In this document: positions 5,599 to 35,603 of the stretch, one piece after another
Layout: every line of letters starts with the position of its first letter
How positions within the stretch are numbered: the first letter of the stretch is position 1
Virus record (IMG/VR): IMGVR_UViG_2917886563_000007
Origin: a virus
Taxonomy: Duplodnaviria; Heunggongvirae; Uroviricota; Caudoviricetes
Length of the DNA stretch: 64,000 bases
Direction: 5' to 3' (one strand)
Position numbers and translations under genes: made by a program
Notes under the pieces: model-generated
Databases searched by the model: none
What the model saw: only the letters and a program-made list of their open reading frames with translations
What the model was told of the DNA's origin: nothing

Positions 5599-5940
5599 TC
5601 AGCCTCCTAGGTCACTTTGGCTTCGTCGTAACAAGCCAGTTGCCTGTCGTGCTCGCAGGATATCTACCGCTCGAAGATAGGGTGATTGTTCCCGACAGTA
5701 GAACCCTCTGCGATCGATACGAACCAGTTCGTACTTATCTACCAAGAAGTTGACTGCATCGGCCAGGGTAATTCCGGCATCAATATGTTCCTTAATAACT
5801 GTTTTATCACTGAACGGCGTGTCGTTCAGTGTCAGGCCATAGTGCTGTTCCAGCAGGCGTGTCAGTAGCATTTGCCAGACAGCTACGGGCGACAGACAGG
5901 GCTTCGCCGCCCGCGAAATTGTAGCAGGTAGAGTTTTCAT
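5599..5940 (-). CDS. CbtA/YeeV/YkfI-family toxin
   Basis: 113-aa ORF resembling the YeeV/YkfI toxin family (…[15 protein letters not shown]…[14 protein letters not shown]…[11 protein letters not shown]…). Confidence 0.75.
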
Positions 5941-5959
5941 GCTTGCTCTCGTGAATTAG

Positions 5960-6277: not shown

Positions 6278-6295
6278 TTATAACCTCTTTTATTG

Positions 6296-6529
6296 TCAGT
6301 TCAGGGTGATACTCATCAGGCAGGCATACGGTCCGTTGCGGTCCTGGCGGCGTTGGGCGTATACCGCCAGCACACCGGGAATGTCAGGAACCACCTGACC
6401 GGTGTAATGACAGACGCTACCGTGCCACTGATATTTTCCGGTGCAGTAGCGAAAGATTCGGGACTCAGGATGCTGGCGGTATATCGTCATTGCCCGGCGT
6501 TTACTGATAATTTTCATGTAATACCTCAC
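6296..6529 (-). CDS. YeeT/YkfH-like DUF987 protein
   Basis: 77-aa ORF (…MKIISKRRAMTIYRQHPESRIFRYCTGKYQWHG…) resembling YeeT family; conserved position between RadC-like and antitoxin genes. Confidence 0.65.
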   Translation of the reverse strand: MRYYMKIISKRRAMTIYRQHPESRIFRYCTGKYQWHGSVCHYTGQVVPDIPGVLAVYAQRRQDRNGPYACLMSITLN

Positions 6530-7002
6530 AGCAGACCGTGTCCTGCGAACGAATAGATTTGCCTGCCACCAACAATCAGATGGTCAGGGACACGGATATC
6601 CACCAGTTGAAGTACCTGAGTCAGTCGCTGCGTGAGGGCTTTGTCAGCCTGGCTGGGCGTCGTCTCGCCGGAAGGATGGTTATGCGCCAGTATCACCGCC
6701 GCCGCATTGAAGTGCAGTGCACGTTTGACCACTTCCCGGGGATGAACCTCGGTGCGGTTAATCGTGCCACTAAAGAGCGTCTCATGGGCGATAAGCTGGT
6801 TCTGATTATCCAGATACAGCACCCGGAACTCTTCCCGCTCAAGTGCGGCCATATGCAGTCGCAACCACTCCCGAACGGCGTGAGTGGAGGTGAAGGCTAC
6901 CCCGGGCTCATGCAGATGCCGGTCCAGAATCCTGAGCGCCCGCTGAATGAGACGCCGGTCCTGTGGCGTCATCTCGCCGGGTAAAAAGGAGAGCTGTTTC
7001 AT
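6526..7002 (-). CDS. RadC-like JAB/MPN domain protein (YeeS/YkfG family)
   Basis: 158-aa ORF with HNHPSG…T-P-S-x-AD motif typical of RadC-like JAB domain. Confidence 0.8.
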   Translation of the reverse strand: MKQLSFLPGEMTPQDRRLIQRALRILDRHLHEPGVAFTSTHAVREWLRLHMAALEREEFRVLYLDNQNQLIAHETLFSGTINRTEVHPREVVKRALHFNAAAVILAHNHPSGETTPSQADKALTQRLTQVLQLVDIRVPDHLIVGGRQIYSFAGHGLL

Positions 7003-7017
7003 CCGTTGTTCCTCCGT

Positions 7018-7476
7018 TCAGTCGATGATACGCAGAATGGAGTGAGCTTCAGGATGCTGCAGGGCATAGTCCCGCAAGCGATAATAGTGTGCGGTCATTG
7101 CGTCACATTCTGTACGACAGGCGTGATGGCTGTATTCAATCAGGCAGACCGCGATACCTGCGGCTTCCACACTCATTTCCGCACCATTACCGTTCATGCT
7201 GTTGAACAGATGCCATTTATCACCACCGTCAGCATCAGGGGCCATAAACGCACCGCCATTGCTGAGCGTGTAAAAGGACCAGATACCACCGCTGTACTCA
7301 TCACAGAAGCGCTCCATCCAGCCGAAAATACGGGGTTCCAGCGTTATCCACTGCGGAATAGCGCCAAAATACAGCGGCCAGAAATCGAGGCGCTGTTCGT
7401 CAGGTACTGGTGTTGCAGTGAGGTCAAATTGAGGTTCATTAGCGGACATCAATTCGCGTTTAGTTTGTGTCGTCAT
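7018..7476 (-). CDS. antirestriction protein (KlcA/ArdB-like, YfjX/YafX family)
   Basis: 152-aa ORF; …DEQRLDFWPLYFGAIPQWITLEPRIFGWM…YRLRDYALQHPE… resembles E. coli YfjX/YafX. Confidence 0.75.
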   Translation of the reverse strand: MTTQTKRELMSANEPQFDLTATPVPDEQRLDFWPLYFGAIPQWITLEPRIFGWMERFCDEYSGGIWSFYTLSNGGAFMAPDADGGDKWHLFNSMNGNGAEMSVEAAGIAVCLIEYSHHACRTECDAMTAHYYRLRDYALQHPEAHSILRIID

Positions 7477-7561
7477 GGATATTCTCCGTCAATAAAAACG
7501 CCAGCGACGATGGCTGGCGTATGGGAAATAAAGGGCATGCAGGGATGATGAATGGGTGTGG

Positions 7562-7798
7562 TCAGGAGGAGGATGCTCTGAGGATGCCTGACTTGCGGAT
7601 ATAACGGTTAAGCCCTTCACCGGCATCAGGTTCAAAGCACCACGCCCGCCAGACCATTCGACCTTCAGAGTCTCGAACCACCAGGCGGAAGTGGCTGCAC
7701 TGGTCATCTTCAATAGCGATATTTTTATACCGGCAGGTAACCGCTTCAGCCTGCTGTCGGGTGAACGGTCCCGGTGGCAACATATGAGATTCAGACAT
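7562..7798 (-). CDS. DUF905 protein (YkfF/YfjZ-like)
   Basis: 78-aa ORF …[15 protein letters not shown]…EDDQ…HFRLV…W…FEPDAG… matching the YkfF family pattern. Confidence 0.7.
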
Positions 7799-7875
7799 TC
7801 GGTGTACCTTAAAAGCAAAAGCCCCTGACGCAGACGCGTCAGGGGCTTTGGGAGTATGCAGGTGTCGGGTGATTG

Positions 7876-8286
7876 TCAGTAACCGGTTTGTACCTTATAC
7901 AGCCGCAGGGTTTTACTGCCCCGGACAATTTTCACATACAGGGCATTATCTTTCGTGCCTCGCACAAAACCGGCCTGCACATCGCCCTTACAGTCACCAC
8001 CATCGTAAGGAATGTTGACGCCGGTCTGACGCACCAGATCAATAATCCCGAAGCTTAAGTCCTCACAGGCCGGGCCCGGCAGGTCCTGAATCAGGGCAAA
8101 TTTATGGTCGTCGCTGACACCGGTCAGTGAGCACATGGAGGTGTTGATGTCGTTTCCCTGGCACCAGTACTCCTGGCCGGGATTGTCTTTATCCATCAGG
8201 CTTGCCGGAAGTTGAGCGGCACCGGCACTGAATGCGGCAAGTGACAGAATGAGAGCGGGTACAGCAGAGGTCATTATTTTCAGCAT
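7876..8286 (-). CDS. secreted hypothetical protein (signal peptide, 4 Cys)
   Basis: 136-aa ORF with N-terminal hydrophobic signal sequence ending AAQ. Confidence 0.5.
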
Positions 8287-8352
8287 GGTTTTCTTCCTGA
8301 ATTAATCCAGCCCGCTGTCGGGCAAAATGAGGGAGGTAGGTATCGGGTGTTA

Positions 8353-8790
8353 TCAGAAGCGCCGGTAGCGAAACAGCTCTTTGCCCTGGTACAACGCCAC
8401 CAGGTCGTCATATTCCGGCTTCTTCTGGTTGGGCATAAAGGTCACTACTGTGCCCGGACGGCACAGGTCTTTTACGGTGAGACCGAACTTCTTGTCCGGA
8501 GTAATGGTGAATCCCTTCGACACATCGTTGCGCATGATAGTTATCCAGCCCCACAGGCCGCCTTCGCAGTCTTTAAAAGGTGCTGAACGCACCGTGACCA
8601 TCCCGCCCTGACGGTCAACAGACATGGCTTCGCATTTTCCGGTAACCTGACGATGCGCATCACACCAGAAAATATTCCCGTTGTTGTCATTGACGACAGC
8701 AGGTAGCGTCCGGTTATAGGGCTGGGCCTGAGCCCCTGCACAAAGCAGAAGGCTGCCGGTAATGCCCAGTATTTTAATCAGTGTTTTCAT
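8353..8790 (-). CDS. secreted hypothetical protein (signal peptide, Cys-containing), possible distant paralog of upstream gene
   Basis: 145-aa ORF with signal peptide MKTLIKILGITGSLLLCAGAQA; similar W-C…C…C spacing to neighbour. Confidence 0.5.
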   Translation of the reverse strand: MKTLIKILGITGSLLLCAGAQAQPYNRTLPAVVNDNNGNIFWCDAHRQVTGKCEAMSVDRQGGMVTVRSAPFKDCEGGLWGWITIMRNDVSKGFTITPDKKFGLTVKDLCRPGTVVTFMPNQKKPEYDDLVALYQGKELFRYRRF

Positions 8791-8830
8791 TACGTTGGTC
8801 CTTAACAGGGAAGTATCAGGTAGCGGTGAT

Positions 8831-9367
8831 TCAGGCCCATACAGTCAGTGCCAGCATCACAAGCCATACCCAGAAGTAAGCCGGTTTCTGACCGAGGTTT
8901 TTCGCCCGACGCCACAGATAGAACGGCACCAGCCAGGCCAGTTTGCCGAACGTGGCGGTGTCCACTCCGGCCTTACGCAGGCGTCGTTCATCGAGATACC
9001 CCAGAGCGATATTGAGCAGCAGCGTGATAAACCAGTACTGCCCGCCCGAGACAGCCTCATATGCCTCGTCAAAAGACATTCCGTTCAGCCCTGCAGTCCA
9101 CAGCTCGAGCGCATAACCAATGAAGGGAGCAAATGCCAGCGTCCATACCACTGCACCCGGAATGCGGTTCCCCGGCAGCGCTGGTGGTGTAGTGCTGTGG
9201 AGCAGCGCTGAAGCCAGCGGGGTGGCGGAGACCGGTTGCCAGTCTGTCATGCCCTGTCGCCACACCAGCGTGGCAGCGGTGAGTTCACCGCGCGCAATCA
9301 GGCCAGTGATGTCGTCTTCGGTCACATTGTCGTGACGTATGCCATTTTTCTCGTAATGCCAGGTCAT
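8831..9367 (-). CDS. inner-membrane protein with N-terminal GYF-like (DUF4339-like) domain
   Basis: 178-aa ORF; N-terminal W…G…W motif region followed by hydrophobic helices. Confidence 0.45.
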   Translation of the reverse strand: MTWHYEKNGIRHDNVTEDDITGLIARGELTAATLVWRQGMTDWQPVSATPLASALLHSTTPPALPGNRIPGAVVWTLAFAPFIGYALELWTAGLNGMSFDEAYEAVSGGQYWFITLLLNIALGYLDERRLRKAGVDTATFGKLAWLVPFYLWRRAKNLGQKPAYFWVWLVMLALTVWA

Positions 9368-9392
9368 TGTTTTTCCTTCTTAACAGAGGTAA

Positions 9393-10103
9393 TTAAATCA
9401 GTGTGTTGCCCTGCTCCTCCTCAGAGGGCCCAGGAGACAGGACTTCACGAATACAGCTGAAGTGCGGAAGAGCCCGGATAAAGCCCGCCTGTGTGGTTAA
9501 CTGGCTGAGACGTTTTCGCGGGGTAAAAGTGGTGTTCAGGACTGTCACCGCATGGATGGTCGCCAGAGGGTGCACGGTGATATGCCCGTTAAGTTCACCA
9601 GTGAGGTACCAGCAGCCGTCGAGTGATATCAGGCGGTACGGGGCCAGCCCGTCACAGCGCTCTCCCTCGGCCAGCAGCAGTACCCGCTTGCAGGCGGTAA
9701 TGGCACTGACAAGACGGTAGAACACCAGTGAGATGGACGGTGATATAGTCTGTGGCGGCTGCCACACCAGGCACGGCATCCCTCCTGCAGTGAGCAGCAT
9801 GCCCGCCAGACGCCGGTCCAGCCCCGGAAAAATATCGGCCAGTCCGGCCCGGTGCGCGAAGGTCAGCGCATCGAGCTCGCCCTGTACGCCCCCACCGGTG
9901 CTACGCAGGCGGCATTGCCCCCGTCGATACTCAAGGTCGAGGTACAGCAGCCGTTCACGAAAATCCCGTCGCAGGGTACGGACTGACACACCAAACTCTG
10001 CAGCAAGTCGCGTCATGTTCAGCGTTTCACCGGCAACCAGGCGGCTGATTATCAGTGACAGCCTGACAGCCAGCCGGTCGTGACGGCGCTCTGCCTGTGT
10101 CAT
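9393..10103 (-). CDS. HTH-WYL domain transcriptional regulator (YfjR-like)
   Basis: 236-aa ORF; N-terminal HTH (…LNMTRLAAEFGVSVRTLRRD…) and C-terminal WYL-type region (…LISLDGCWYLTGE…). Confidence 0.65.
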   Translation of the reverse strand: MTQAERRHDRLAVRLSLIISRLVAGETLNMTRLAAEFGVSVRTLRRDFRERLLYLDLEYRRGQCRLRSTGGGVQGELDALTFAHRAGLADIFPGLDRRLAGMLLTAGGMPCLVWQPPQTISPSISLVFYRLVSAITACKRVLLLAEGERCDGLAPYRLISLDGCWYLTGELNGHITVHPLATIHAVTVLNTTFTPRKRLSQLTTQAGFIRALPHFSCIREVLSPGPSEEEQGNTLI

Positions 10104-10311
10104 CTCGAATCTCCGTAATAATTAACTGACTGAATATGAAATGATTCTAAAGAGGGGGGCGGACAGGGTATGGACACGGAATGAACTATTTTTTCTCTGC
10201 CACCGGAGGCAGGCCCGACGCGGCACACCGTGAAATACGGTGATAAAACACTCAATCCAATGGTGGTAAAACGGACAGGGAGTGTCCTTTCCCAACATAC
10301 TGATAACAAGC

Positions 10312-11136
10312 TCAGGACTGAAACCCACTCAGCATCGCTTCCGCTATCACCCAGAGAGCCCGGTTGAGCTTCACATCTCCGTCGATACCACGCACGGCGC
10401 GGGTATGCGTTCGCCCACCTTTTGCACTCCGACCACTGAGCCCGCCCTTAATCAGGTTCTCCTGAATACGCTGGTATGTGGTCCACAGATCATTGCTCTC
10501 ATCCTGCCAGCGGCGTGGGGAGAGTATCTGAGGTGCTGTCACCGGCTGGTGGTCCTCACCGAAACGGTACGTCAGTGCAGCCTGTGCCAGAGCCTGTTGT
10601 GCAGGTGGCGTCAGCATCAGCGACTGCATGGCATCCCGCTTCTCTTCCACACGGTCAAAAATCCCCAGCACTTCATACGCTCCTTCGATCACCTGACTCA
10701 CCACATCCCCTTTGTGCGGCACACGCACCTCGCCAAACGACTCACCGCAGACGAGTCCGTTCTGGCATACCGCACGGAATAATCCCGGTAGCATCTGATA
10801 CGAGCTGGAGCCGTCGTGAGAATTGAGCAGAATAATTTCCGGGACCTGCTTACCGGTAATCTGCCCCTCCCGACGCAGGCGCAGCATGTGCTTTGTATGC
10901 TCGCGACGCCCTGGGTCAGGTACTCGAGTCTGGCAGGCAAAGAACGGCTGAAAGCCTTCGCGCTGCAGGTTTTCAAGTACAGTAATTGTTGGTATCCAGG
11001 TATACCGGGCACTCCGGGACGCATGCTTCTCCTCACTGAACACACTGGGTACCACGCGATACAACTCTTCACGGGTTAACGGCCGGTCACGACGGATAAG
11101 ATTTGCTGCGCCAAAGCGCGAAGCCAGACGGGTCAT
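10312..11136 (-). CDS. DUF932 protein (YafZ/YfjQ family)
   Basis: ORF 10312..11184; likely start at internal Met (MTRLASRFG) giving about 274 aa; resembles YafZ/YfjQ. Confidence 0.7.
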   Translation of the reverse strand: MTRLASRFGAANLIRRDRPLTREELYRVVPSVFSEEKHASRSARYTWIPTITVLENLQREGFQPFFACQTRVPDPGRREHTKHMLRLRREGQITGKQVPEIILLNSHDGSSSYQMLPGLFRAVCQNGLVCGESFGEVRVPHKGDVVSQVIEGAYEVLGIFDRVEEKRDAMQSLMLTPPAQQALAQAALTYRFGEDHQPVTAPQILSPRRWQDESNDLWTTYQRIQENLIKGGLSGRSAKGGRTHTRAVRGIDGDVKLNRALWVIAEAMLSGFQS

Positions 11137-11229
11137 AAGCAGACTCCTCATGATGGAAAATACATACAAAAAGCCCCGCCGCAAAATCGCGGCAGGGCTC
11201 AGGAAACTACGGGTTGGAATGGTTAATGT

Positions 11230-12093
11230 TCAGAAGAAGAAATCCCAGACTGCACGGGCGACTGATACCACGATGTTGCGTACAGACTGGATAACTGTCC
11301 GAACCGGGGCCGGTATGAGTGGCAGGGAACTTACAGTGTCCAGTACCGAGCCTACTGTTTCACCAAAATCGTCACGGGCTTTTTTATTAACGGCATCGGT
11401 ACGAAGAGGAGCACTAAGCTGTACCGCTACCGGGCTACTGGCCTCACGCGGAAGGCAACGAATCATACGCTCTGCCATCACCCGCAGTCCCCAATGCAGA
11501 CGAACCGACACCGCACAGATCGGATTTACTGGTTGGAATAACTCATGCAGCAAGCAGATTTTGCGACTGATGTTCTGCTTTTGCTCCCTGGAGAGCTTAT
11601 CACCGCCGCTGGTGGGTTCAGCCTTATCCGACTGACTGATAACAAACAGCACCTTATGTCGGTAAGCCTCCCCAATTACCTGATGGTAAAATTGTTCATC
11701 CACCCCCAGCGCCCGATCATCAGCCTTAATCAGCCACAGTACCAGGTCGAGCCGGGGAAGTTGTTCGCGATACAGGGCGGCGTATTCAGTATCGCGCAAA
11801 CTACTTTCCCCCACGCCTGGTAGATCAACAAGGGTCATAACGCTCTCGCCCACTTGCAGGCTAAATTGTAAGGGGACGCGTGTGCAGGCGACTACATCGC
11901 TAACCGGTGAAACCTCACTGGCAAACAGGGCATTGCACAACGACGATTTTCCTGCCCCGGTTTTACCCATAATGCCGATCACAGGCTCGTAGTGAGTAAG
12001 CTGGTTTATCTGCTGCAGAATACGCTCCGATGCCCATTGCGGCAGGTCGGAAAGCGAGTCCTGCAGGTCAAGTAGACCTTCAATTTTTTTCAT
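11230..12093 (-). CDS. GTPase (YkfA/YfjP family)
   Basis: ORF 11230..12135; likely start MKKIEGLL; Walker A GKTGAGKSS and DxxG (DLPG) motifs. Confidence 0.75.
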   Translation of the reverse strand: MKKIEGLLDLQDSLSDLPQWASERILQQINQLTHYEPVIGIMGKTGAGKSSLCNALFASEVSPVSDVVACTRVPLQFSLQVGESVMTLVDLPGVGESSLRDTEYAALYREQLPRLDLVLWLIKADDRALGVDEQFYHQVIGEAYRHKVLFVISQSDKAEPTSGGDKLSREQKQNISRKICLLHELFQPVNPICAVSVRLHWGLRVMAERMIRCLPREASSPVAVQLSAPLRTDAVNKKARDDFGETVGSVLDTVSSLPLIPAPVRTVIQSVRNIVVSVARAVWDFFF

Positions 12094-12367
12094 CTCAACT
12101 CCGCTGAAAAGTAAAACATAAAACGGTAAAACCAAATGGTTTTACCGTTTAAAAGGAAATGTTCAGGGGAATGATATATATCTTAATGTTTTTAGAATGG
12201 ATTCATATATGATGTTGATCTTATTCAAGATATCCTAGAGTATCATTCTGTTGATAACATATTGAATTTGGTTAAAATAATTGAGCCTGATATCCCTTTT
12301 TACTGAATTTCAAGAGGTATTGGGTTGTGTTCGTTCGCCCAATTCTATTGATGACAAGGAAAAGCAA

Positions 12368-15300
12368 ATGGTTAGTAGCCAGTATCCCCGGGGTTCAGAA
12401 TGGCATAAGTGGGATTTACATATTCACACTCCAGCATCTTTTCATTGGAATGGCCCGAGATTTAAGTCAGATCCACGCTCACCAGAGAACGCCCCACTAG
12501 TGGATGCAATGATCAATGCTATGAATGCAGCAGAACCAATCGCATTTGCGATTATGGATTATTGGACCTTTGATGGATGGTTTGCGTTAAAACATCGATT
12601 GACGCAAGAAGATGCCCCCAAGCTAGAAAAAACCGTTTTTCCTGGAATTGAATTGCGGTTGATGGCGCCAATGCGTGGAAGGCTAAATGCTCACGTTCTT
12701 TTTTCTGATCATATACCAGATCAGGAGCTTATTGATTTCAAGAGTAAACTAGAGGTTGCTCTAATAAATAAGTCATTATCAGATTCAGCCTTAATCCAAA
12801 TAGCTAGGGAGGCTGCACCAGATAAATTGCGGCATCATAGTCTCAACCAACAAAAGATTCTTCAATCTGATGCTGATGCTCTCAAGGCTGGTTCAATAAT
12901 AGCCGAGGTTACATGTGAGAGTTATCAAAAAGCAATTAACAGTGTCAGCAAAAATCAAGCTATTGGGTACATGCCATTTGATACCAATGATGGGCTTACT
13001 GAAATTGAGCGTAACGCGCATTATGCATTCGCATTAACTCTTTTCAAGACATCACCAATATTTGAAACAAGGGATTATGCTACGTGGGCAGCTTTCGCTG
13101 GTGTAAAGGTCCCTGAAAATGAAAGGTGGTTTGATGCTTTTCAAAAGGCTTTAAATAATAAACCTAGACTTGCTATTTCAGGGAGTGATGCTCACTGCTT
13201 TGTTGGAGAACCTGGTAACAATGATCGCCGAGGATATGGTGACTACCCTTCAGGAAAGGCAACATGGATAAAGGCTAATCCAACATTTGACGGATTAATG
13301 CAAGCAATAAGAGAACCAGCAAAACGTTCATTTATTGGTGCTATTCCTAAAAAACGGAAATTAGTAAGCGAAAACAGAAGTCTATTTATTGAAAAGCTAG
13401 AAGTTAAAAAATCAATTGATTCATCAATCAATGAATCCTGGCTCGACAATACGGATATACATTTAAATCACGATTTAGTCGCTATTATTGGTAATAAAGG
13501 TAGTGGTAAAAGTGCATTGGCTGATATTGCAGCGTTGCTTGGTAACTCTAAACAAAGTCATCATTTTTCCTTCCTAAAGGAAAATCGATTTAGAGGAAAA
13601 ACAGGTGAGCCAGCACGTCACTTCAATGCAAAAATAGTATGGAGTGATGAAAAAGAGTTAACAAAAAACCTTAATGATAATCCAGCAACTGAAAATGTTG
13701 AATTAATAAAATACATTCCACAAGGCCATTTTGAAGAGTTGTGTAATGCTCATGTATCGGGCCAATCAGATGCATTTGAAAAAGAACTAAGATCTGTAAT
13801 CTTCTCACATGCAGATGAATCTATACGCTTAGGTGCTCATGATTTTGAAGATCTGATAGAAAAGCAGGAGAGCTCTCTTCGAAGCCAACTAGAAAGCTAT
13901 CGTAGTGAGATGCATAAACTCAATGAACAAGTAATGTTTATTGAGAGCCAAATGACCGATGAAGCAAAAAAAGCACTTGATGAAATGTTGGCTCAAAAAG
14001 TTAGATTACTGGAAGAGTTGATCAAAGCAAAGCCAGAAGAAGTTCCTGAACCATCTAATGAGCTTACACAGGAACAACAACAAATATCTGAACAGCTATC
14101 AAACATCAATCAAGAATTAGAAAAGTTACAGAAGCAGCAAGAATCAGACCTAGAAGAACTTACAAAGTTAGCCGGAAAGAGAAAAGCAAGCAAGAATATT
14201 AAGGCTGGTTTTGAAATCGTCAAACGTGCAGTTAATCAATTTGTGTCAGAGTTTGATTCAGATGCTAAACTCCTTGGTTTGGATATAGAGAGTTTAGTTA
14301 GAGTTGATGTTGATGAAAAAACTCTCTCTGCATTAGACGATGCTGGTTCACTTCGTGAAAAAGAAATCAAAGAACGTCAATTAACCCAAGTGGCTAGTAA
14401 ACAATTAATTTTGGAGAAAAAAGCTCCACTAAATGCACAGTTGAATGCCCCACAACAAGCATACCAGTTGTTTAAAGAACAGCTCAAAGCTTGGGGTGAG
14501 AAACATGCAGCATTATTAGGAAACAAAGATGATCCAGATACACTCGAAGGTATCAAGCATAGAATATCTAAACTGGAGCAACTTCCAAGTCAACGATTAG
14601 AATTACATGAGAAACGAAACGATTTGACTCGAAAAATTTTTACAATTCTTAATGAGCAAAAAGAGAATCGTGAAACCCTTTTCGAACCAGTACAATCACT
14701 TATTCAAAATAATATTCTTATCCGTGATGAATACAAACTACAATTTAGAGCTGAACTAAGTAGCACTGCAGATCTAATTTCAAATAGATTATTTTCCATT
14801 GTTAAGCAAGCGTCGGGTGAATTTAGGGGCGAATCAGAGAGTCTTTCAGTAATTAAAGACCTTATGGATCGACATGATTTAAATGACCAAGAATCTTTAC
14901 TCATGTTTGTCCAGGAATTGCACAGAAAACTAGAGAGTTCTTCTAAGAATCCAGTTGGTGTAGCTTCATTGTTACGCAAAGATCGTACAGCTAATGAAGT
15001 TTATGACCTTATTTTTGGCTTAGAGTACCTTGAGCCAAGATATACATTAATGTTTCAAGATGCTCAAATAGGACAATTGTCTCCTGGACAAAGAGGGGCC
15101 TTACTTCTGATTTTCTATCTGCTTGTGGATAAAGGAAATACACCAATAATTCTGGACCAGCCTGAAGAGAATCTTGACAATGAAACTATTGTTAGCCTGC
15201 TTGTACCTGTTTTAACGGAAGCAAAGCAAAAACGACAGATTATTATGGTTACACATAATCCGAATCTTGCAGTTGTTTGTGATGCAGAGCAAATTATCCA

Positions 15301-15442
15301 TTGTGAGTTTGATCGCACAAAGGGGCACAAAATAACATATACCCCAGGAGCTATTGAGTGTAGCGTAATTAATAACAAAGTGGTTGATGTTCTTGAAGGA
15401 ACTATGCCTGCATTTGATAATCGTAGAATGAAGTATATGTGA
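12368..15442 (+). CDS. PHP-domain nuclease fused to SMC/Rad50-like ABC ATPase with long coiled coil (Ppl-like candidate antiphage protein)
   Basis: ORF 12281..15442 (1053 aa); best start ATG 12368 after AAGGAAAAG RBS. N-term PHP motifs (WDLHIHTP…, …SGSDAH…), Walker A IIGNKGSGKS, about 450-aa coiled-coil region rich in E/K/Q/L, C-terminal Walker B/D-loop ILDQPEENLD and H-loop MVTHNP. Confidence 0.7.
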   Translation: MVSSQYPRGSEWHKWDLHIHTPASFHWNGPRFKSDPRSPENAPLVDAMINAMNAAEPIAFAIMDYWTFDGWFALKHRLTQEDAPKLEKTVFPGIELRLMAPMRGRLNAHVLFSDHIPDQELIDFKSKLEVALINKSLSDSALIQIAREAAPDKLRHHSLNQQKILQSDADALKAGSIIAEVTCESYQKAINSVSKNQAIGYMPFDTNDGLTEIERNAHYAFALTLFKTSPIFETRDYATWAAFAGVKVPENERWFDAFQKALNNKPRLAISGSDAHCFVGEPGNNDRRGYGDYPSGKATWIKANPTFDGLMQAIREPAKRSFIGAIPKKRKLVSENRSLFIEKLEVKKSIDSSINESWLDNTDIHLNHDLVAIIGNKGSGKSALADIAALLGNSKQSHHFSFLKENRFRGKTGEPARHFNAKIVWSDEKELTKNLNDNPATENVELIKYIPQGHFEELCNAHVSGQSDAFEKELRSVIFSHADESIRLGAHDFEDLIEKQESSLRSQLESYRSEMHKLNEQVMFIESQMTDEAKKALDEMLAQKVRLLEELIKAKPEEVPEPSNELTQEQQQISEQLSNINQELEKLQKQQESDLEELTKLAGKRKASKNIKAGFEIVKRAVNQFVSEFDSDAKLLGLDIESLVRVDVDEKTLSALDDAGSLREKEIKERQLTQVASKQLILEKKAPLNAQLNAPQQAYQLFKEQLKAWGEKHAALLGNKDDPDTLEGIKHRISKLEQLPSQRLELHEKRNDLTRKIFTILNEQKENRETLFEPVQSLIQNNILIRDEYKLQFRAELSSTADLISNRLFSIVKQASGEFRGESESLSVIKDLMDRHDLNDQESLLMFVQELHRKLESSSKNPVGVASLLRKDRTANEVYDLIFGLEYLEPRYTLMFQDAQIGQLSPGQRGALLLIFYLLVDKGNTPIILDQPEENLDNETIVSLLVPVLTEAKQKRQIIMVTHNPNLAVVCDAEQIIHCEFDRTKGHKITYTPGAIECSVINNKVVDVLEGTMPAFDNRRMKYM

Positions 15443-15455
15443 TGTTTGCATAAAA

Positions 15456-15492
15456 CTGCCCATCTATAAGTTTTAGATGGGCAGTTTCTTTC
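15456..15492 (+). terminator. Rho-independent terminator after the PHP-ATPase gene
   Basis: ctgcccatcta…tagatgggcag stem followed by tttctttc. Confidence 0.7.
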
Positions 15493-15623
15493 GAAGTTAC
15501 CGGGGGCACATTGGCAGTGCGATAAATCAATAATATCTTTTATGATATTCGGATTTATATTATGGAATGATATAAGTGCTTATAAACTTTTACTGGAATT
15601 TAATGGGGTTGTATTATAACCAA

Positions 15624-16244
15624 CTACCCTCGACTGCATCCGAAATTTCTGTCACCTTCACCAAATATTTTTGTATCTAACTTGGTTAAATAGTCTAGAC
15701 GGGTGAGAAGGTCGTTATACACAATGTCAAAATCCGGATCGTTAACATTCAATACATATCTACAATTCTCCGGGAAATGAACCAGATTCCTGCAATCCTC
15801 AGGTTCAAGATTAAGAGCACTATACCATGCTCTAGTTATCATATTAGTGAGCGTACCGCTATGTTCATGATGACCCAAGTGATAGTAAGCATCTTTATTG
15901 AAAAATAGACAAGTGTGAAAATGACATTTTCCACTCTGCGTGTATTCCCTTGCCCAGAGTTGGCGTATTGAATTTGGTTTTATTCTAATCCCAGCGCATA
16001 CTCTACGGTTTTCACTAGCAGCTAATATAGCTTTTAATGAATTTATAAAGCGAGATATTGCTCCAGGTTCAAGATTATGAAAACAACAAACTGTGTCGCC
16101 ATTATCAAGGATTTTCGGATAATGAAGATCAACCCTTAACGCCATAGTTTTGGAGAATTGATGAATAGCATTGTTAATCACGGTAGCAATATTGTCTCTA
16201 TAAGAGATGATATGATTGCCATGAGTACCATTATAGATTTTCAT
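15624..16244 (-). CDS. YagK/YfjJ-family protein
   Basis: 206-aa ORF with features of YagK/YfjJ family typical of CP4 islands; Cys/His-rich (…CCFHNLEPG…, …CHFHTCLFF…). Confidence 0.55.
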   Translation of the reverse strand: MKIYNGTHGNHIISYRDNIATVINNAIHQFSKTMALRVDLHYPKILDNGDTVCCFHNLEPGAISRFINSLKAILAASENRRVCAGIRIKPNSIRQLWAREYTQSGKCHFHTCLFFNKDAYYHLGHHEHSGTLTNMITRAWYSALNLEPEDCRNLVHFPENCRYVLNVNDPDFDIVYNDLLTRLDYLTKLDTKIFGEGDRNFGCSRG

Positions 16245-16466
16245 AATAATAAGACCATAGTTGCTCTTATCTTAAATAAGAGCATGTTGATTAATATCTT
16301 TTCTATAGAGCAAATGAATTAATGTTTTGGCAATCACATACAACACTTCTATTAGTTATCAATAGAAACGACAATATATTACCTTTCCACCACCATTTAC
16401 CTATATCAGGTCTGTTCCAGCCTAAAGATTACGAGTGCAATTCGCTCTGCATTTAGCTTTGTACTT

Positions 16467-17912
16467 TTACACGATGTATTGTGTGCTGATAGATTGCATA
16501 TAGTCTATATCAGGACCGATATATAAAGATCTTCCACGTTTAGCTATTCTGATTTTTCCTTGCTGAACTAAAATTTCCAATAAACCATCTGCGACTTTCT
16601 TTCTTCTCAATCGATTAGGTCCAAAGGAGTAAATTAACACTTTGTTAAAATAAATTATGGAGTTGTCTTCGCAATATTTTATAACCCAGTTAAATAATTC
16701 TTCAGAATCAACTTGTTCCTCTTTTTTATCTAGGAGCTTAGGAGGTGAAAATATACGGATATATTCATCTGTAAACCAAAGTGTAATTTCAATTGCTGCC
16801 TCTATGGCTTCTAAAGAAATATCACCTTCCCCATGGTTAAAATAAAATAGAAGTGCTGATATTCTTGCTGCATTTTCTGCAATTTTAGAAGCATAATCTT
16901 TGATGTCAGAAAATAATCCAAATCCAAGCATCCCCATTTCGGACTCTACTTGATTATGAAATTGTATCCATCTTTCTTGTGCTTCCGGAGAAAAGTAGAG
17001 GCAGGTCCGTTTGCTGTTTTTATTTGATGCAATGTTTGTCTTAATAATCTCCATTAATCTCTTATGAAACAATGGAAGATGTTCATTTGAAGTGACTGGG
17101 TTAGTTATTGTTCTGTAACCTTGTTTCGAGTGAGGTTGACAAATCAAAAATCGATTGAATATCCCAATTCCCTTTGCTATATCACCTTTATTTTTAATAT
17201 ATCTGCTAATAACGCTAGGTTGCGCCATCAATCCTGCTGTTAGGGTTGCATTTTTAATTAATCTATCCGGTTCATTCTTTCTTTGCAGTGTGTATGTAGA
17301 ACCATCCCACATTTTGTTGAGGAAGGGTAAGTCACCTAGGATATAGCCATTAAATACAGTTCCTGCTTCATCAGAAAAAATTCCGACAGAACGCCAATGA
17401 CCGGAAAGATAATCTTTTAAAGCAGCGGGTGTCGCGTCATTAAATATCATCCTATATTTTATTGGTTCTTCTGGGTAAGAAGAAAGAAGTTCTTCAAGTC
17501 TTTTACGATGCTCAGAAATATCTCTATTGCAGCGAATGTCTGACTTGATTTTTGCTATAATTAATTTCTTTTCAATATCTATTATTTCAATTGTGTTTTT
17601 GTATGATAGCATTTCATTTAGATGCTTTTCAAATAACAATTCTTCAAATTCATATATCGGGTTAAATATTTGTTTGTAAACACCTGTTTTCCTTTCTCCA
17701 GAATCGGCGATTGTCAACAAATATAATGATGCAGGGCCAGTAATGTTATTTATCCTACATACATCTATACTATTCTGACAGGCTAAAGAAATGGCACTTA
17801 GTATAGCTGAAGAAATCAATGATAGTGGGGCTTGAGTATGCTGTTCTACTTCATAGACAGCATTTCTGGCTAGTGAGGGCAGCGTGTGTACAGGGAAATT
17901 TTTATCTAACAT
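16467..17912 (-). CDS. DUF3987-like protein (YfjI family; primase/helicase-associated)
   Basis: 481-aa ORF in the position and size of YfjI-like genes upstream of AlpA and integrase in P4-type islands; low-GC. Confidence 0.5.
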   Translation of the reverse strand: MLDKNFPVHTLPSLARNAVYEVEQHTQAPLSLISSAILSAISLACQNSIDVCRINNITGPASLYLLTIADSGERKTGVYKQIFNPIYEFEELLFEKHLNEMLSYKNTIEIIDIEKKLIIAKIKSDIRCNRDISEHRKRLEELLSSYPEEPIKYRMIFNDATPAALKDYLSGHWRSVGIFSDEAGTVFNGYILGDLPFLNKMWDGSTYTLQRKNEPDRLIKNATLTAGLMAQPSVISRYIKNKGDIAKGIGIFNRFLICQPHSKQGYRTITNPVTSNEHLPLFHKRLMEIIKTNIASNKNSKRTCLYFSPEAQERWIQFHNQVESEMGMLGFGLFSDIKDYASKIAENAARISALLFYFNHGEGDISLEAIEAAIEITLWFTDEYIRIFSPPKLLDKKEEQVDSEELFNWVIKYCEDNSIIYFNKVLIYSFGPNRLRRKKVADGLLEILVQQGKIRIAKRGRSLYIGPDIDYMQSISTQYIV

Positions 17913-17924
17913 AATAACCTCCTT

Positions 17925-18161
17925 TCATCGTTTTTCTTCAGAAGCGAAGAGAGTGTGGATATAGCTTTGAACGTCATCCCAGAGCCAGTAGTTTTTTTTG
18001 TTAATTTTTTTTGGTCTTACCAAACCAGATGGTAATTGATCTTGGCACAACCATTTTCTGATTGTTTGCGGTTTACAATTCAACAGTTGTGCTAAATCAT
18101 TAGTAGAAACAAGTCGGATGTTGCTTGGAGATGATGCTTCACTTATTTGAAATTTGCTCAT
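17925..18161 (-). CDS. AlpA-family transcriptional regulator / excisionase
   Basis: 78-aa ORF; HTH …LVSTNDLAQLLNCKPQTIRKW… typical AlpA/phage excisionase. Confidence 0.7.
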   Translation of the reverse strand: MSKFQISEASSPSNIRLVSTNDLAQLLNCKPQTIRKWLCQDQLPSGLVRPKKINKKNYWLWDDVQSYIHTLFASEEKR

Positions 18162-18634
18162 GATGCCACCCCGGAGATAAAAACGTGGGCAAATGAAGCA
18201 ATAGGTAGGACGCAGGCTTTGTTTAAGAGATAGGAGGCGTTTAAGGAAAGGATAGAGAATAAGGAGGATGATCTGAGTACACTTGCAGGCTCGGGATCAC
18301 CACCTTCACTTGAACCGGTGGAAAAAGATCCCTTTGCTGACTTGGTGCTACTACGATGCGCTCTCGAGGTATGAGTTTTAAATGGCACTGAACGAGAAAT
18401 CACGTTAGCTAAAGCAATTTTGCATGCCTTGTTTCGTACATTTTTCCGATAAATAGCCTGATCCATTACATGAAGGGCGACTTTCTTATAGTGGTTTTTA
18501 AACCATTGCTCAATGGGGAGTCCATTAGATGATGGTGAATGGTATTGGATTTCAAAATTGATCTCGGGCAGTCCAAGCAGATTCGCCAGAATCTCTTGAC
18601 TATCATCTAACACGGGGTTGTAACTATTAAACAT
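18158..18634 (-). CDS. hypothetical protein
   Basis: 158-aa ORF overlapping AlpA start by 4 nt; no recognised motif. Confidence 0.35.
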   Translation of the reverse strand: MFNSYNPVLDDSQEILANLLGLPEINFEIQYHSPSSNGLPIEQWFKNHYKKVALHVMDQAIYRKNVRNKACKIALANVISRSVPFKTHTSRAHRSSTKSAKGSFSTGSSEGGDPEPASVLRSSSLFSILSLNASYLLNKACVLPIASFAHVFISGVAS

Positions 18635-18762
18635 TCTGATATTTCTCCTCTAGGGTCGTGAACTAATGAGGCGATTTTTATCCAAGTTTCAATATCTGTC
18701 AATAACTCTTTTATTTTTCAGGGTTAATGTAACATATTGATATTTAATGAAATCAACGCGTA

Positions 18763-20160
18763 TCAACACTCGATTTTTTCATAAATAGAGGCCTGTTCTA
18801 AGATCCAGCTCTCAATTTTTTCATGCCATTTACGCAACAAATCTAATGGACGACGACGGTAGTGTTTCTCAGCTAGAGCACTAGGTTTATGGCCCATAAT
18901 CTGCGCAACTATGCCAGTTGGCACTTCGACCCATTCGGCGAGCGTACCAAAACTACGACGTAATCCATGCAGGCTGATGTGTGGTAATTCAGCCTTAGCT
19001 AAGGCCCGATTGTGTGCGGAACGCGGTTCAATAATTTTGCCGCTTTTGCTATTACTCCTGAAAACCCAATCCTCCTTATTTACGTCAGAATTTGGTGTTT
19101 GCACCAATGCGCGTAACAGGTGAGTGACATAAGGAGTAAGAGGTATGATACGTTCGCCTTCGATCTTGTCTTTAATCCGCATACTTGACCATTTGAAATC
19201 GACGTCAGACCACCGAAGTGACGCAATTTCTTCGCGTCGCGCTCCGGTGAGTAAAAGTACCTGGAGATAGGCCGATGCAATGGGATTGTTGAGGTTACGC
19301 ACGGCACTGAACCAGCTTTTTAACTGTTCTTTTTGTAAGCAATCTCCCGCTTTACTCGCTGATACTGGAACCAATTTTCTCACGTTATGATCTTGTGCAA
19401 GATCGCCATGGATTATTCCCTGATATTTTTTCTGGTAATTAACCCATTTGATAAATGCACGCAACAGACGGTAGGCATGAGCAGTGACGGTAGGCCGATT
19501 TTGTCTTTCTGTACTTAGCCATGCGGCAATGTTCTCTGGTGTTAGTTCCGATAACGGTAGGTCGAGCAAGCTAGCCAATGGTCCAGCCGAGGTTGGGCCC
19601 CGGCCTCTTTTTTTACTTTCTCCTCCACGGCTGGACAAGTTCACGTGATCGGCAATATAACGTGCAGAGTAAGGACGTTTAGTTTTTGCGCTGATTCCGG
19701 TTCTCAATTCTTGAAGATAATCTTCCCAAGCGCTTGAGAAGGTTACCTTCGTTTTACGAGATTCAGCCTGCTGTGATTCCGCTTCAGCAATTTTTTCTGC
19801 TTTAGCTATACGCGGATCTATCCCAGTATCGATTAATGTTTGCAGCCGCCTGGCTTCGGCCCTGGCATCATCAATCCTCCAATCGTTAATGTTGCCAATG
19901 GTCATGCGAAGGGTTTTTCCCGCATATACGCTTTGGAACACAAAAGCTTTTGTTCCGCGAGTTGCCCGGCATGCCAGAGTTGTTACATCCGCATCCCAAA
20001 GAAATGCTTGGTTTTTCCCTTCAGTTAAAGCAAATTTTCGAATACGCTCGAAGGTGAGTTTTTGTCTCGGAAGTGCCATTTTTGGGCTCCAGATGAGAAA
20101 GGTTACATCACCATAATGTAACGGCTGGTGTAAGTAAATTAGGGGAATACACATCAACAC
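18763..20160 (-). CDS. tyrosine integrase (P4/IntF-like)
   Basis: 465-aa ORF (alternative start at 20079, MALPRQK); C-terminal catalytic residues …HGLRRSF…IMGHK…Y…; adjacent to the tRNA-derived repeat. Confidence 0.85.
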   Translation of the reverse strand: MLMCIPLIYLHQPLHYGDVTFLIWSPKMALPRQKLTFERIRKFALTEGKNQAFLWDADVTTLACRATRGTKAFVFQSVYAGKTLRMTIGNINDWRIDDARAEARRLQTLIDTGIDPRIAKAEKIAEAESQQAESRKTKVTFSSAWEDYLQELRTGISAKTKRPYSARYIADHVNLSSRGGESKKRGRGPTSAGPLASLLDLPLSELTPENIAAWLSTERQNRPTVTAHAYRLLRAFIKWVNYQKKYQGIIHGDLAQDHNVRKLVPVSASKAGDCLQKEQLKSWFSAVRNLNNPIASAYLQVLLLTGARREEIASLRWSDVDFKWSSMRIKDKIEGERIIPLTPYVTHLLRALVQTPNSDVNKEDWVFRSNSKSGKIIEPRSAHNRALAKAELPHISLHGLRRSFGTLAEWVEVPTGIVAQIMGHKPSALAEKHYRRRPLDLLRKWHEKIESWILEQASIYEKIEC

Positions 20161-20261
20161 CTGTCAATTTTTATCAACAGGTGTGTTTTATAAGTTAATG
20201 TTTTATAATGAACTAATTGTTTTAAGAGTAGGTTTTTAAAGGGGTAAAAGTATAATAACGT

Positions 20262-20310
20262 CGCATTCGTAATGCGAAGGTCGTAGGTTCGACTCCTATT
20301 ATCGGCACCA
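20262..20310 (+). repeat. 49-bp direct repeat of thrW 3' end (att core; pseudo-tRNA)
   Basis: cgcattcgtaatgcgaaggtcgtaggttcgactcctattatcggcacca identical to 1396-1444; flanking approx 20 bp also similar (t(c)taaatcaat(a/t)agttac). Confidence 0.9.
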
Positions 20311-20324
20311 TCTAAATCAATAAG

Positions 20325-21488
20325 TTACACATCATTAGTACCTTCCTTATTTTTTGACTGGGACAAATTTGGGACCGATGGGTTCAGGATCGAGTCTATT
20401 TGCCGTGCGTGTTCGGTAAGGTGATTAGGTGCAAGGTGAGCATATCGACGAACCATTTCGATAGACTCCCAGCCTCCCATTTCCTGTAACACTGACAACG
20501 GGACTCCGGCTTGAACCAGCCAACTTGCCCAGGTGTGTCTCAAGTCGTGAAATCTGAAATCATCAATACCAGCCCGTCTCAGCGCCGCTTTCCAGGCTGT
20601 GTTTGCGTCATACCGCATCTTCCTTACTGTTGGCGCTTTCGTTCCGTCTGGTTTGGTACAGCTTTCCTTGTACACAAATACCCAACGGTGATGATTCCCG
20701 ATTTGTTTTTTCAATACGCGACATGCAGTATCATTCAGCGCAACGCCAATTGCGCGGTTTGATTTACTCTCTTCCGGGTTTATCCATGCCACCCGGCGCT
20801 GCATATCTATTTGTTGCCATTCAAGGTTGATGATGTTCGAGCGTCTTAAACCTGTTGCCAGTGCAAATTCAACAACAGACTTTAATGGCTCCGGACATTC
20901 ATCAATCAGCCTTTGTGCTTCATGAGGCTCCAGCCAGCGGATCCGTTTATTCTTTGGTTGAGGCACTTTAATAATTGGTGCCTTATCCAGCATTTTCCAT
21001 TCACGCTCTGCGGCTCTTAGCAGGGCCTTTATAAATGAAAGATGCGTTGCCTTCGTTGCAACGGACGCTGGTTTTGGCGTGTATTCTGGAACTGGTTTCC
21101 CTTTTTTTCTGCATGCTTCTGCCCTGAGTTTCCAGTTTTCCTCATGACGCCGGTTCGTCATTTTCTGCATTGCTGAATAAATTTTTGATTCAGTAATGTC
21201 TCTTAGTTGCATTCCTGCGAAATGTTGAAGCCAGAATCCGATCCGGCTTTTGTCATCGTCCAGTGATTTTTTATGTGCTTTCTCTTCGAGCCACCTGACA
21301 CACGCCTCCTCGAACGTCATATCAGGTATTTCACCAAGTTTGCTGACCCGCCATGCTTCAGCCTTTAGCTTGTCATGGAGCTCTGTCGCCTGCCTTTTGT
21401 CCTTTGTTCCAAGAGACTGTTTAAATCTTTTACCGTTCGGCAATGTGAAACTGGCGTACCATATTTCACCTCTGCGGAAGAGTGACAT
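20325..21488 (-). CDS. int: tyrosine integrase (P22/DLP12 IntD-like)
   Basis: 387-aa [44 protein letters not shown]… matching P22/DLP12-type Int as recalled; stop codon 14 bp from tRNA repeat. Confidence 0.9.
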
Positions 21489-21715
21489 TTTCTTTCCTCT
21501 GTTATGCCATCACCCGCGCTCACCTGGACAGTATGCAGCGGAGACTGAAGCGCCGCAATGCAGGCTTGTCGTGTTGTGAGGTAAGGAGATTTTGGTTTAG
21601 TGGGGTCTTTGCGTGTTGCCTGTAGGCGGCCTGTTCGTATCCAGTTGGTAGCGGTAGGTCTGGATATCTTGAGAAACTGACAGGCCTCATCGAGTGTGAG
21701 GCTGTATGATTCCAT
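21365..21715 (-). CDS. xis: excisionase (Xis, HTH_17-like)
   Basis: ORF 21365..21745; start at [29 protein letters not shown]… ; overlaps int start as in P22/DLP12. Confidence 0.65.
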
Positions 21716-28226: not shown

Positions 28227-29242
28227 CAGGTTCAGAAATGGCGAAAGCCGGTCTGCTGGAACAGAACCGACTTTCAGGTGCAAATCGTAACGCACTCATT
28301 GCGGGAGGAATTATGGCAAACACTGCTGAGATATTCAATTTTCCAGTGCCGGATGTGGCACAAAAGGAGCCGCGCGTGGCAGATCTCGATGATGGTTATA
28401 CGCGCATTGCTAATGAGTTGCTGGAAGCTGTGATGCTGGCCGGATTAACACAGCACCAGCTTCTGGTCTTCCTGGCTGTCATGCGCAAAACATATGGCTT
28501 TAATAAAAAAATGGATTGGGTGAGCAACGAGCAACTTTCCGAGTTAACCGGGATATTGCCGCACAAGTGTTCTGCTGCAAAAAGTGTTCTGGTAAAGCGT
28601 GGGATTTTTATTCAGAGCGGGCGGAATACCGGCATTAATAATGTGGTCAGTGAATGGTCAACATTACCCGAATCAGGTAAGAAAAATAAAGTTTACCTGA
28701 AAGAGGTAAATTTACCTGAATCAGGTAAAAAAAGTTTACCCAAATCAGGTAAAGACGTTTACCTGAATCAGGTAAACACAAAAGACAAACTAACAAAAGA
28801 CAATATAAAACCTTATTCGTCCGAGAATTCTGGCGAATCCTCTGACCAGCCAGAAAACGACCTTCCTGTGGTGAAACCGGATGCTGCGATTCAGAGCGGC
28901 AGCAAGTGGGGGACAGCAGAAGACCTGACCGCCGCAGAGTGGATGTTTGACATGGTGAAGACCATCGCGCCATCAGCCAGAAAACCGAATTTTGCAGGGT
29001 GGGCTAACGATATCCGCCTGATGCGTGAACGTGACGGACGTAACCACCGCGACATGTGCGTGCTGTTCCGCTGGGCATGCCAGGACAACTTCTGGTCCGG
29101 TAACGTGCTAAGTCCGGCCAAACTCCGCGACAAGTGGACCCAACTCGAAATCAACCGTAACAAGCAACAGGCTGGCGTGACAGCCGGAAAACCAAAACTC
29201 GACCTGACGAACACTGACTGGATTTACGGGGTGGAGCTATGA
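28223..29242 (+). CDS. O: replication initiator O (lambda-like C-terminus, distinct N-terminal specificity domain)
   Basis: 339-aa ORF; C-terminal third matches lambda O as recalled (…NFAGWANDIRLMRERDGRNHRDMCVLFRWACQDNFWSGNVLSPAKLRDKWTQLEINRNKQ…); ori iterons inside. Confidence 0.9.
   Translation: MTGSEMAKAGLLEQNRLSGANRNALIAGGIMANTAEIFNFPVPDVAQKEPRVADLDDGYTRIANELLEAVMLAGLTQHQLLVFLAVMRKTYGFNKKMDWVSNEQLSELTGILPHKCSAAKSVLVKRGIFIQSGRNTGINNVVSEWSTLPESGKKNKVYLKEVNLPESGKKSLPKSGKDVYLNQVNTKDKLTKDNIKPYSSENSGESSDQPENDLPVVKPDAAIQSGSKWGTAEDLTAAEWMFDMVKTIAPSARKPNFAGWANDIRLMRERDGRNHRDMCVLFRWACQDNFWSGNVLSPAKLRDKWTQLEINRNKQQAGVTAGKPKLDLTNTDWIYGVEL
28666..28776. repeat. ori iterons (5 copies of ~19-bp tttacctgaatcaggtaaa-like site) followed by A-rich region
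   Basis: Copies at about 28666, 28692, 28711, 28735, 28758; each internally palindromic; followed by A-rich stretch 28777-28812. Confidence 0.85.
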
Positions 29243-30236: not shown

Positions 30237-30511
30237 GGTTGACGATAACTAATATCTGGCGCTATATTCTGTGCGTTGCCGCAAAATCGGCACACGGGAT
30301 TGGCGTCCCGGATAAGGTAATCGCGACTACTACACGCCGCGAGCGTGTTTTTTATTGTCGTAAGCATACGCACATCTGAATTATGGTGGGGCGTGTAGGG
30401 CCGACTTCGGTCGGGCCGGTTGATTACCCCGGTTACGCCAACCCTACATGTCTCACCACCAAACTGATTGGCGTCAGCGGTGGTGGTTAACTTGATTTAT
30501 AGGTAATCATC

Positions 30512-34950: not shown

Positions 34951-35188
34951 GTGTTTTAAATGGGGAGGTGGCTGGATGTCTAAAATAAACATTGCTTCCA
35001 AGTGTACAACTATGCGTTAATGGCTGCGTCGGTTTGAAGAACAGACGATATACGAAGTAGTTTACTAAAGCAGTTCTCATTTCAGGTGTTATTCACTTAT
35101 TCCTTCTTTGAGTCTCTCCAATTAAGTACGAAGTCGTTTCTGTTATACAAATCATTTATGCCGAAAGGCTCAAGTTAAGGAATGTAGA

Positions 35189-35404
35189 ATGTCAAATAAA
35201 ATGACTGGTTTAGTAAAATGGTTTAACGCTGATAAAGGTTTTGGCTTTATTTCTCCTGTTGATGGTAGTAAAGATGTGTTTGTGCATTTTTCTGCAATTC
35301 AGAATGATAATTATCGAACCTTATTTGAAGGCCAAAAGGTTACCTTCTCTGTAGAGAGTGGTGCTAAAGGTCCTGCAGCAGCAAATGTCATTATTACTGA
35401 TTAA
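35189..35404 (+). CDS. cold-shock protein (CspA family; CspB/CspI-like prophage copy)
   Basis: 71-aa ORF with RNP motifs KGFGFI and VFVHF. Confidence 0.9.
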
Positions 35405-35603
35405 AATTCATAGCTTGTCTGTATACGATAACGAAGAAGGCTGATGCCTGAGTAGAGATGCAGATAGAGTTGTGGGTATTGAATCCCATTTTGTGGTGAA
35501 GTGCAGGTTTGCTGCATGAATAGTTTTACAGTAGAAGCTAACTGCTGGCATAGCAATACAAAGTGCGTAAGTGGGTAACTACCACAAAAAGCACCACAAT
35601 CTC

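Follow-up and report, generated by a model that had tools for sequence, protein, structure and literature searches.

The tRNA gene thrW is a recognised integration hotspot (PMC7545054). The serotype-converting Sf phages, with the exception of Sf6, all integrate into this gene, and one of them, SfIV, can be induced from its lysogen by UV, forms plaques and uses a 46-bp att site (PMC3851460). The att core published for SfI, SfII, SfV, SfX and P22 is ATTCGTAATGCGAAGGTCGTAGGTTCGACTCCTATTATCGGCACCA, and a PCR-sequenced attP has been reported for SfI (PMC3636060). Elements can also be stacked at this gene: laboratory work has produced tandem lysogens of SfX and SfI at thrW, in which SfI had inserted into the SfX attL (PMC3306764). 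The layout described here is thus already documented, and our locus is a natural example of it with different partners rather than evidence of a new mechanism.

The stretch of DNA that we analysed, hereafter the window, is 64,000 nucleotides long and very probably carries tandem integrative elements at thrW, a CP4-6-type island followed by a lambda-like prophage, with one repeat serving both as the attR of the island and as the attL of the prophage. The thrW gene itself is intact (1369–1444, plus strand); ARAGORN identifies a tRNA-Thr with the anticodon CGT, and the Rfam tRNA model scores 71.8 bits. Its upstream neighbour is proA, which is ~96% identical to the E. coli gene; the host is an Escherichia. 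The final 49 nucleotides of thrW (1396–1444, plus strand), which we call copy 1 and which correspond to the island attL, are duplicated exactly at 20262–20310 on the same strand (copy 2), the match extending to 50 nucleotides if the next T is counted. At up to three mismatches these are the only two copies of the 49-nucleotide repeat in the window, and none of 100 shuffled sequences contained a match. Copy 2 was also considered as a second tRNA gene and rejected, since ARAGORN and Rfam recognise the full thrW only.

The DNA between the two exact 49-bp direct repeats (1445–20261) constitutes the CP4-6-type genomic island, with a repeat-to-repeat unit of 18,866 bp. According to Pfam its cargo includes a Dcm-type methylase, YagK/YfjJ- and DUF3987/YfjI-type genes, and a 1053-residue SMC/AAA_21 ATPase that resides in a low-GC block (GC 0.34–0.38 over 12–18 kb). 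The island shows partial matches of 90% to CP4-like islands of E. coli, and the best E. coli island match covers 49%. Its tyrosine integrase is an IntF-like, P4-type protein of 465 amino acids with Pfam Phage_integrase and Arm-DNA-bind_3 domains (18763–20160, minus strand); the gene lies at the thrW-distal end of the island and points its 5' end towards copy 2, and E. coli matches are annotated as intF. The segment 18728–20328 is colinear with K-12 CP4-6 from intF through the repeat at 82% nucleotide identity, and the corresponding end of CP4-6 in K-12 consists of intF, ~110 bp, the identical 49-nucleotide block (CGCATTCG...CACCA) and then host DNA. This alignment, and the identical repeat within it, bears out the original prediction that copy 2 represents the attR of the island. 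In seven complete E. coli genomes an intF and a P22-type int abut in the same way. CFSAN051542 was considered as a closed example of the tandem and set aside: there IS5 cuts the P22-type int-xis down to a stub, more islands come after it, and the genome bears out the abutting of the two int genes, not the full architecture.

On its right-hand side copy 2 looks like the end of a phage. The final 46 nucleotides of the repeat (20265–20310) are exactly the published SfI/SfII/SfV/SfX/P22 core, and this core adjoins a phage integrase gene whose stop codon (20325–20327) begins after a gap of 14 nucleotides (20311–20324), precisely the spacing that had been claimed. The identity block is 49 nucleotides for the island-type repeat versus 46 nucleotides for the phage-type core, with the extra CGC of copy 2 on the island side, while a third copy beyond the window (see below) shows the phage-type TATA-ATTCG junction. 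The left flank of copy 2 together with the 49-nucleotide block matches the intF-attR end of CP4-6 in K-12, and the right flank matches the P' sequences of SfIV and P22. The left core-type site of this attL departs from native thrW in the sequence upstream of its CGC triplet, a difference that may bear on the efficiency of excision; in genomes that lack the island, the same Int and P' adjoin the intact thrW. Judged by these flanks, copy 2 is a hybrid site, with the P-side flank of the island at left and the P' arm of the phage at right. The P' arm (20311–20400, plus strand) overlaps the 3' end of int and shows 99% identity to the corresponding side of the SfIV attP, which agrees with the assignment of the repeat as prophage attL.

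The prophage integrase (20325–21488, minus strand) is a protein of 387 amino acids of the SfIV/SfII/P22 type, specific for thrW. Its match to the Pfam Phage_integrase profile PF00589 (E 5e-48) covers 171 of the 172 profile positions, and inspection locates the catalytic residues in GLRR at 213–216, H314-D-L-R317, W340 and Y349; an arm-binding N-terminal domain was not detected in this protein by Pfam. In the phage collection its identity amounts to 99.7% with SfIV Int, 90.2% with P22 Int and 100% with the C-terminal 205 residues that are known of SfII Int. By these identities its closest relatives are SfIV and SfII and not P22 itself, a refinement of the P22-type label that the original prediction had given it together with thrW as its target. 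The assembly collection has 266 indexed blocks with this exact protein, for which 10 other assemblies are listed; among these listed matches the identical Int directly adjoins thrW-proA-proB in nine of ten places, and the tenth (L019) is another tandem, in which a second integrase and the remnant of a P22 tailspike intervene. The 5' end of int is overlapped by the gene for a Xis-like excisionase of 116 amino acids with an HTH_17 domain in Pfam (21365–21715, minus strand), whose start codon at 21715 coincides with the end of the region that the original prediction had singled out. The xis region is 93.7% identical to that of SfIV at the nucleotide level, and the same int-xis gene pair is found in other thrW prophages.

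The body of the prophage (21716–61586) is lambda-like and looks complete, as judged from Pfam matches, ORF maps and the called genes of a contig (L007) that extends the window to the right. It carries exo/bet, an S24 repressor, O/P replication genes and a lysozyme, and its head and tail genes include a gpA terminase, a lambda-type portal B, capsid E, tape measure H, J and side tail fibres; a small membrane ORF lies at 61278–61586. It is followed by a short conserved segment (61617–61780) that is present in many lambdoid prophages and flanks a variable cargo slot. Matches to the prophage in other E. coli reach ~61780 and then give way to unrelated cargo, such as an OLD-type nuclease or hypothetical genes, and the matches in the complete E. 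coli genomes NCTC9041 and GDSC2BY4G begin at 61617–61623, behind a different gene. The segment was tested as an att remnant and rejected, as it resembles neither the core nor the arms and is common in lambdoid prophages that are integrated elsewhere. To its right, the window encodes a LysR-family regulator (61883–62785, plus strand) and a Zn-dependent alcohol dehydrogenase family protein (62935–63927, plus strand), both assigned by Pfam, and its last nucleotides (63928–64000, plus strand) are the start of a final ~2 kb of prophage DNA that runs off the window and continues in L007.

The right junction was the point at which the original prediction had to stop, as it could not find a third core at the supposed right end of the prophage (61587–61894). 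The failure to find one is reproducible: neither a pattern search allowing three mismatches nor blastn-short with 7-nucleotide words detected a third core copy in the 64-kb window, and Smith-Waterman alignments of the core and of the full attR against 61400–62000 and 60000–64000 scored no better than shuffled sequence. The placement of the right end, on the other hand, does not hold. Via the exact dehydrogenase protein (62935–63927) we located the contig L007 (PDHX01000024.1 of GCA_004745245.1), which is 100% identical to window positions 52935–64000 over 11,066 bp and, by virtue of this overlap, should represent the window's own genome or a clone of that genome. Past the window end L007 contains two AT-rich ORFs (147 and 210 amino acids), in neither of which Pfam found a match, followed by a P arm of ~277 bp and then the 46-nucleotide core at contig positions 13003–13048, 1,937 bp beyond the window (virtual positions 65937–65982). 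This copy 3 is read from the contig and not from the window, the identity of the two extending over the 11-kb overlap. By its core and arm copy 3 is the attR of the prophage, and the search within the window evidently failed because of the position of the window edge and not because of prophage decay. The prophage can thus be traced through the LysR and dehydrogenase genes and a further 1.94 kb to copy 3, and its borders fall at 20265 and ~65982 rather than at ~61.6 kb. Core to core the unit measures 45,672 bp. Lambda heads package ~38–52 kb, so a prophage of 45.7 kb fits lambda-like packaging.

Since copy 3 lies beyond both the LysR and the dehydrogenase gene, the interval 61883–63927 is to be counted as phage cargo and not as host flank. 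The pair occurs between tail-fibre genes and a P arm with core in L007, L008, L001 and L006; L008 and another assembly, L009, have the layout of L007, and the contig of L009 stops within the core. In NCTC9041 and GDSC2BY4G the pair is located between prophage tail genes and the thrW repeat, and it is past this repeat that the host genes yagP'/paoDCBA start. Among 5,426 complete E. coli genomes the pair is found in three, twice in thrW prophages and once in a tRNA-Phe island, that of strain G3/10; this distribution is that of mobile cargo, and the pair appears to behave as such. LF3-1 was considered as a clean reference with a single prophage and set aside, its right arm being broken by IS26 and resistance genes.

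If copies 2 and 3 are the attL and attR of one phage, then joining their prophage-side flanks across the core should rebuild its attP, and it does. A construct that begins with the 127 bp preceding copy 3 and runs through the core into window positions 20311–21500 is colinear with the SfIV gtrA-attP-int region and identical to it at 1351 of 1364 positions (99%), where the SfIV attP of GenBank (KC814930) is itself an in silico join of the prophage ends at the core and the contiguity of the site is provided by the P22 record LC730322.1. Against the contiguous attP of that complete P22 genome the same construct is colinear and 79% identical, with a core that matches at 46 of 46 positions. The comparison with related thrW prophages, which had been put forward as a check, thereby shows an intact SfIV-type P arm in front of copy 3. 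Each arm of the reconstructed site contains two TGGGAC motifs, all four in the same orientation; those of the P' arm are direct repeats at 20359–20364 and 20370–20375. All four positions are kept in P22 despite the 79% identity, and the background frequency of the motif is 0.16 per kb in the whole window, counting both strands. It is plausible, on the strength of this conservation, that the motifs are candidate arm-type binding sites for Int.

The stacking at thrW continues to the right of copy 3. The following 2 kb of L007 are 98% identical to the DNA that directly follows an intact thrW in E. coli SC477 and HD12481, where it opens an element of ~11–12 kb that encodes HTH, capsid and baseplate proteins and has its own tyrosine recombinase at the far end; beyond this element SC477 has a degenerate repeat and a lambdoid prophage with a P22-type int. 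Only these first 2 kb of the third element match in L007, after which the sequence runs into an IS3-family insertion. The thrW locus thus comprises a stack of three elements or more, in which copy 3, too, is probably an att site shared by its neighbours.

From the architecture and homologies observed at the locus we infer the recombination activity and the position of the crossover. By analogy with its family, a tyrosine integrase would exchange strands within the 46-nucleotide block that is shared with the 3' half of thrW, starting from the anticodon loop, assisted by arm-type sites on both sides for which the conserved TGGGAC motifs are candidates, and the 116-residue Xis would direct excision between copies 2 and 3. 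Each of the two elements should be able to excise on its own: loss of the island would yield the common arrangement with thrW beside int, and loss of the prophage the K-12-like arrangement with intF beside the repeat. The order in which the elements arrived cannot be deduced from the structure, because both orders give the same product.

Several other accounts of the locus deserve consideration. The absence of any att-like sequence at 61587–61894 or elsewhere in the window, and the metabolic rather than viral appearance of the LysR and dehydrogenase proteins, would be expected if the right arm of the prophage were truncated near 61587–61894, with attR lost and the two genes part of the ordinary host chromosome. 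Such a truncation is scarcely credible given that both the identical contig and two sibling assemblies have an intact P arm and a 46-bp core past the two genes, that yagP'/paoDCBA of NCTC9041 and GDSC2BY4G start only after the thrW repeat, that a cassette present in three of 5,426 complete genomes, one of them in a tRNA-Phe island, makes for poor host chromosome, and that this very position holds unrelated cargo in other lambdoid prophages. Neither a truncated right arm nor a different att site for the prophage, the two observations that would have spoken against the original prediction, was found. A subtler history, in which the P arm, copy 3 and the LysR-dehydrogenase genes stem from an earlier element with a P22-type int and were fused to the present prophage by a deletion that took out an internal att copy, is quite unlikely, even if arrays with several P22-type integrases do exist (L019, SC477 and CFSAN051542), the same cargo also stands behind a different right arm, with a GIY-YIG gene and pinE, in NCTC9041 and GDSC2BY4G, and the extra 1.4 kb of AT-rich ORFs between the dehydrogenase and the P arm is present here but not in those two genomes. 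The interval from the tail fibres to the P arm shows no leftover fragment of an int, xis or att site, however, and modular exchange of cargo at the conserved junction 61617–61780 explains the pattern without a deletion; in any case such a history would leave the present structure unchanged, with an attL and an attR that match one type of Int and enclose 45.7 kb.

A different kind of doubt concerns the present state of the elements, which could be fixed relics whose att copies are scars and whose integrases no longer excise either of them. Sequence alone demonstrates no activity, CP4-6, the relative in K-12, is a cryptic prophage according to the MG1655 annotation, and the DNA past copy 3 is interrupted by the IS3-family element. 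We nonetheless regard decay of this kind as unlikely: all three repeats are free of mutations across their 46–49 nucleotides, the Int differs by approximately one residue from that of the inducible phage SfIV, and xis, both att arms and all of the lambda-like modules that were checked are intact. At the speculative end, and very unlikely in our estimation, the array may act combinatorially: as each internal att copy is a hybrid site, an integrase might now and then recombine copies that are not neighbours, such as copies 1 and 3, which would excise island and prophage as a single circle or swap cargo between elements, and could allow the phage module to mobilise the IntF island. In a milder version, the LysR and dehydrogenase genes together with the two AT-rich ORFs might form an exchanged module; this would amount to a new phage-borne conversion or defence module occupying the gtr slot and exchanged with tRNA-Phe islands. 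The reading of two elements in tandem that share copy 2 thus remains the one that we favour, and its value lies chiefly in annotation, as it supplies the true borders of the prophage and moves two metabolic-looking genes from the host flank to the phage cargo. Among the known cases of stacking at thrW it is one more natural example, which unites a lambdoid phage with a P4-type island and a further element.

How the locus relates to the systems that are already described can be judged element by element. [quoted passage not shown] In SfIV the slot next to attP is occupied by the O-antigen modification genes gtrA, gtrB and gtrIV, whereas here it holds LysR, the Zn-dehydrogenase and two further ORFs; the head and tail genes of our prophage are of the lambda type, and the likeness to SfIV is drawn on the int-xis-attP module. 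The Salmonella phage P22 shares the core, the thrW target, a colinear attP and TGGGAC repeats in both arms, but its arms are ~79% identical and contain five copies of the motif against four here. P22 is moreover a short-tailed phage that carries gtrABC. The P arm has further relatives: the region at ~12726–12937 of L007 shows 87% similarity to the phage 21 att region, and a 117-bp segment nearer the core (~12874–12990) is 88% identical to the right end of DLP12 in K-12 (ompT-envY), which lends support to the P22/DLP12-type label of the original prediction. DLP12 itself is inserted at argU, with intD, and not at thrW.

The island is most readily compared with K-12 CP4-6, with which it shares an integrase at the thrW-distal end facing an identical 49-bp repeat, as well as YagK/YfjJ-type genes. 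The cargo of the two is mostly different, and where our repeat borders on a prophage, that of K-12 borders on host DNA (yagP, paoD). As a whole the arrangement most resembles the tandem of SfI and SfX (Sun et al. 2011, PMC3306764), which is likewise organised head to tail at thrW with one shared att copy, and in which the incoming phage used the att site of the resident element and not a naive attB. In that case both partners are phages with one type of att site and their order of entry is known, whereas the locus described here combines an island with a P4-type integrase, a phage and a third element.

The third thrW repeat lies beyond the end of the window, and what follows on its right (13050-20993 of the overlapping contig L007, virtual window positions ~65984 onward) does not belong to the host chromosome, as comparison with two loci that carry the element following thrW (L024 9001-20050 and L026) shows. 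Over its first 2 kb this DNA is 98% identical to the left end of an element of 11-12 kb located immediately behind thrW in the E. coli genomes SC477 and HD12481. This element encodes a capsid protein, a baseplate protein and a distal tyrosine recombinase, a gene content that suggests a possibly satellite-like element. Its counterpart in the genome of the window is broken by an IS3-family insertion, and the remainder diverges.

The cargo slot extends beyond the window, where the dehydrogenase gene is separated from the prophage P arm by two AT-rich ORFs, one of 147 aa and one of 210 aa (11325-11768 and 11934-12566 in both L007 and the sibling assembly L008, minus strand). A Pfam search of both ORFs returned zero matches, they are missing from the loci of E. 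coli NCTC9041 and GDSC2BY4G, which otherwise resemble this one, and L007 has a frameshift in the 210-aa ORF when compared with L008. The pair may form a small module for defence or a toxin-antitoxin system. In the island, a low-GC block (12000-18000, GC 0.34-0.38) includes a gene for a 1053-aa protein (12281-15442, plus strand) with weak matches to SMC_N and AAA_21 (AbiEii-like ATPase), which may serve in defence against phages. The island of ET245, the best E. coli match to that of the window at 49% coverage, additionally encodes ThiF, multiubiquitin and JAB-domain genes.

The host (assembly GCA_004745245.1) may belong to a divergent or cryptic Escherichia lineage. The best identity of proA (window 1-1368) among 5,426 complete E. 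coli genomes is ~96%, and identity is ~90% for the IntF region at the integrase end of the island versus 99% for the prophage int gene.

Three Rfam matches fall on the plus strand of the prophage. Those to isrK (30277-30353, 61 bits) and C4 antisense RNA (30379-30463, 74 bits) both exceed the gathering score and are adjacent to each other downstream of the replication genes, while the full-length match to the cspA thermoregulator (35028-35420, 156 bits) implies a putative phage-borne cold-shock protein gene with its own 5' UTR. Repeats occur within two prophage genes. In the 791-aa side tail fibre gene, 21-nt (7-aa) tandem units are nested inside 189-nt units (58042-58521) and encode a repetitive Ala/Ser/Thr/Lys-rich segment. 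The O-like replication gene contains five copies of the palindromic 19-nt unit TTTACCTGAATCAGGTAAA (28663-28776), a pattern typical of the iterons in lambdoid origins.
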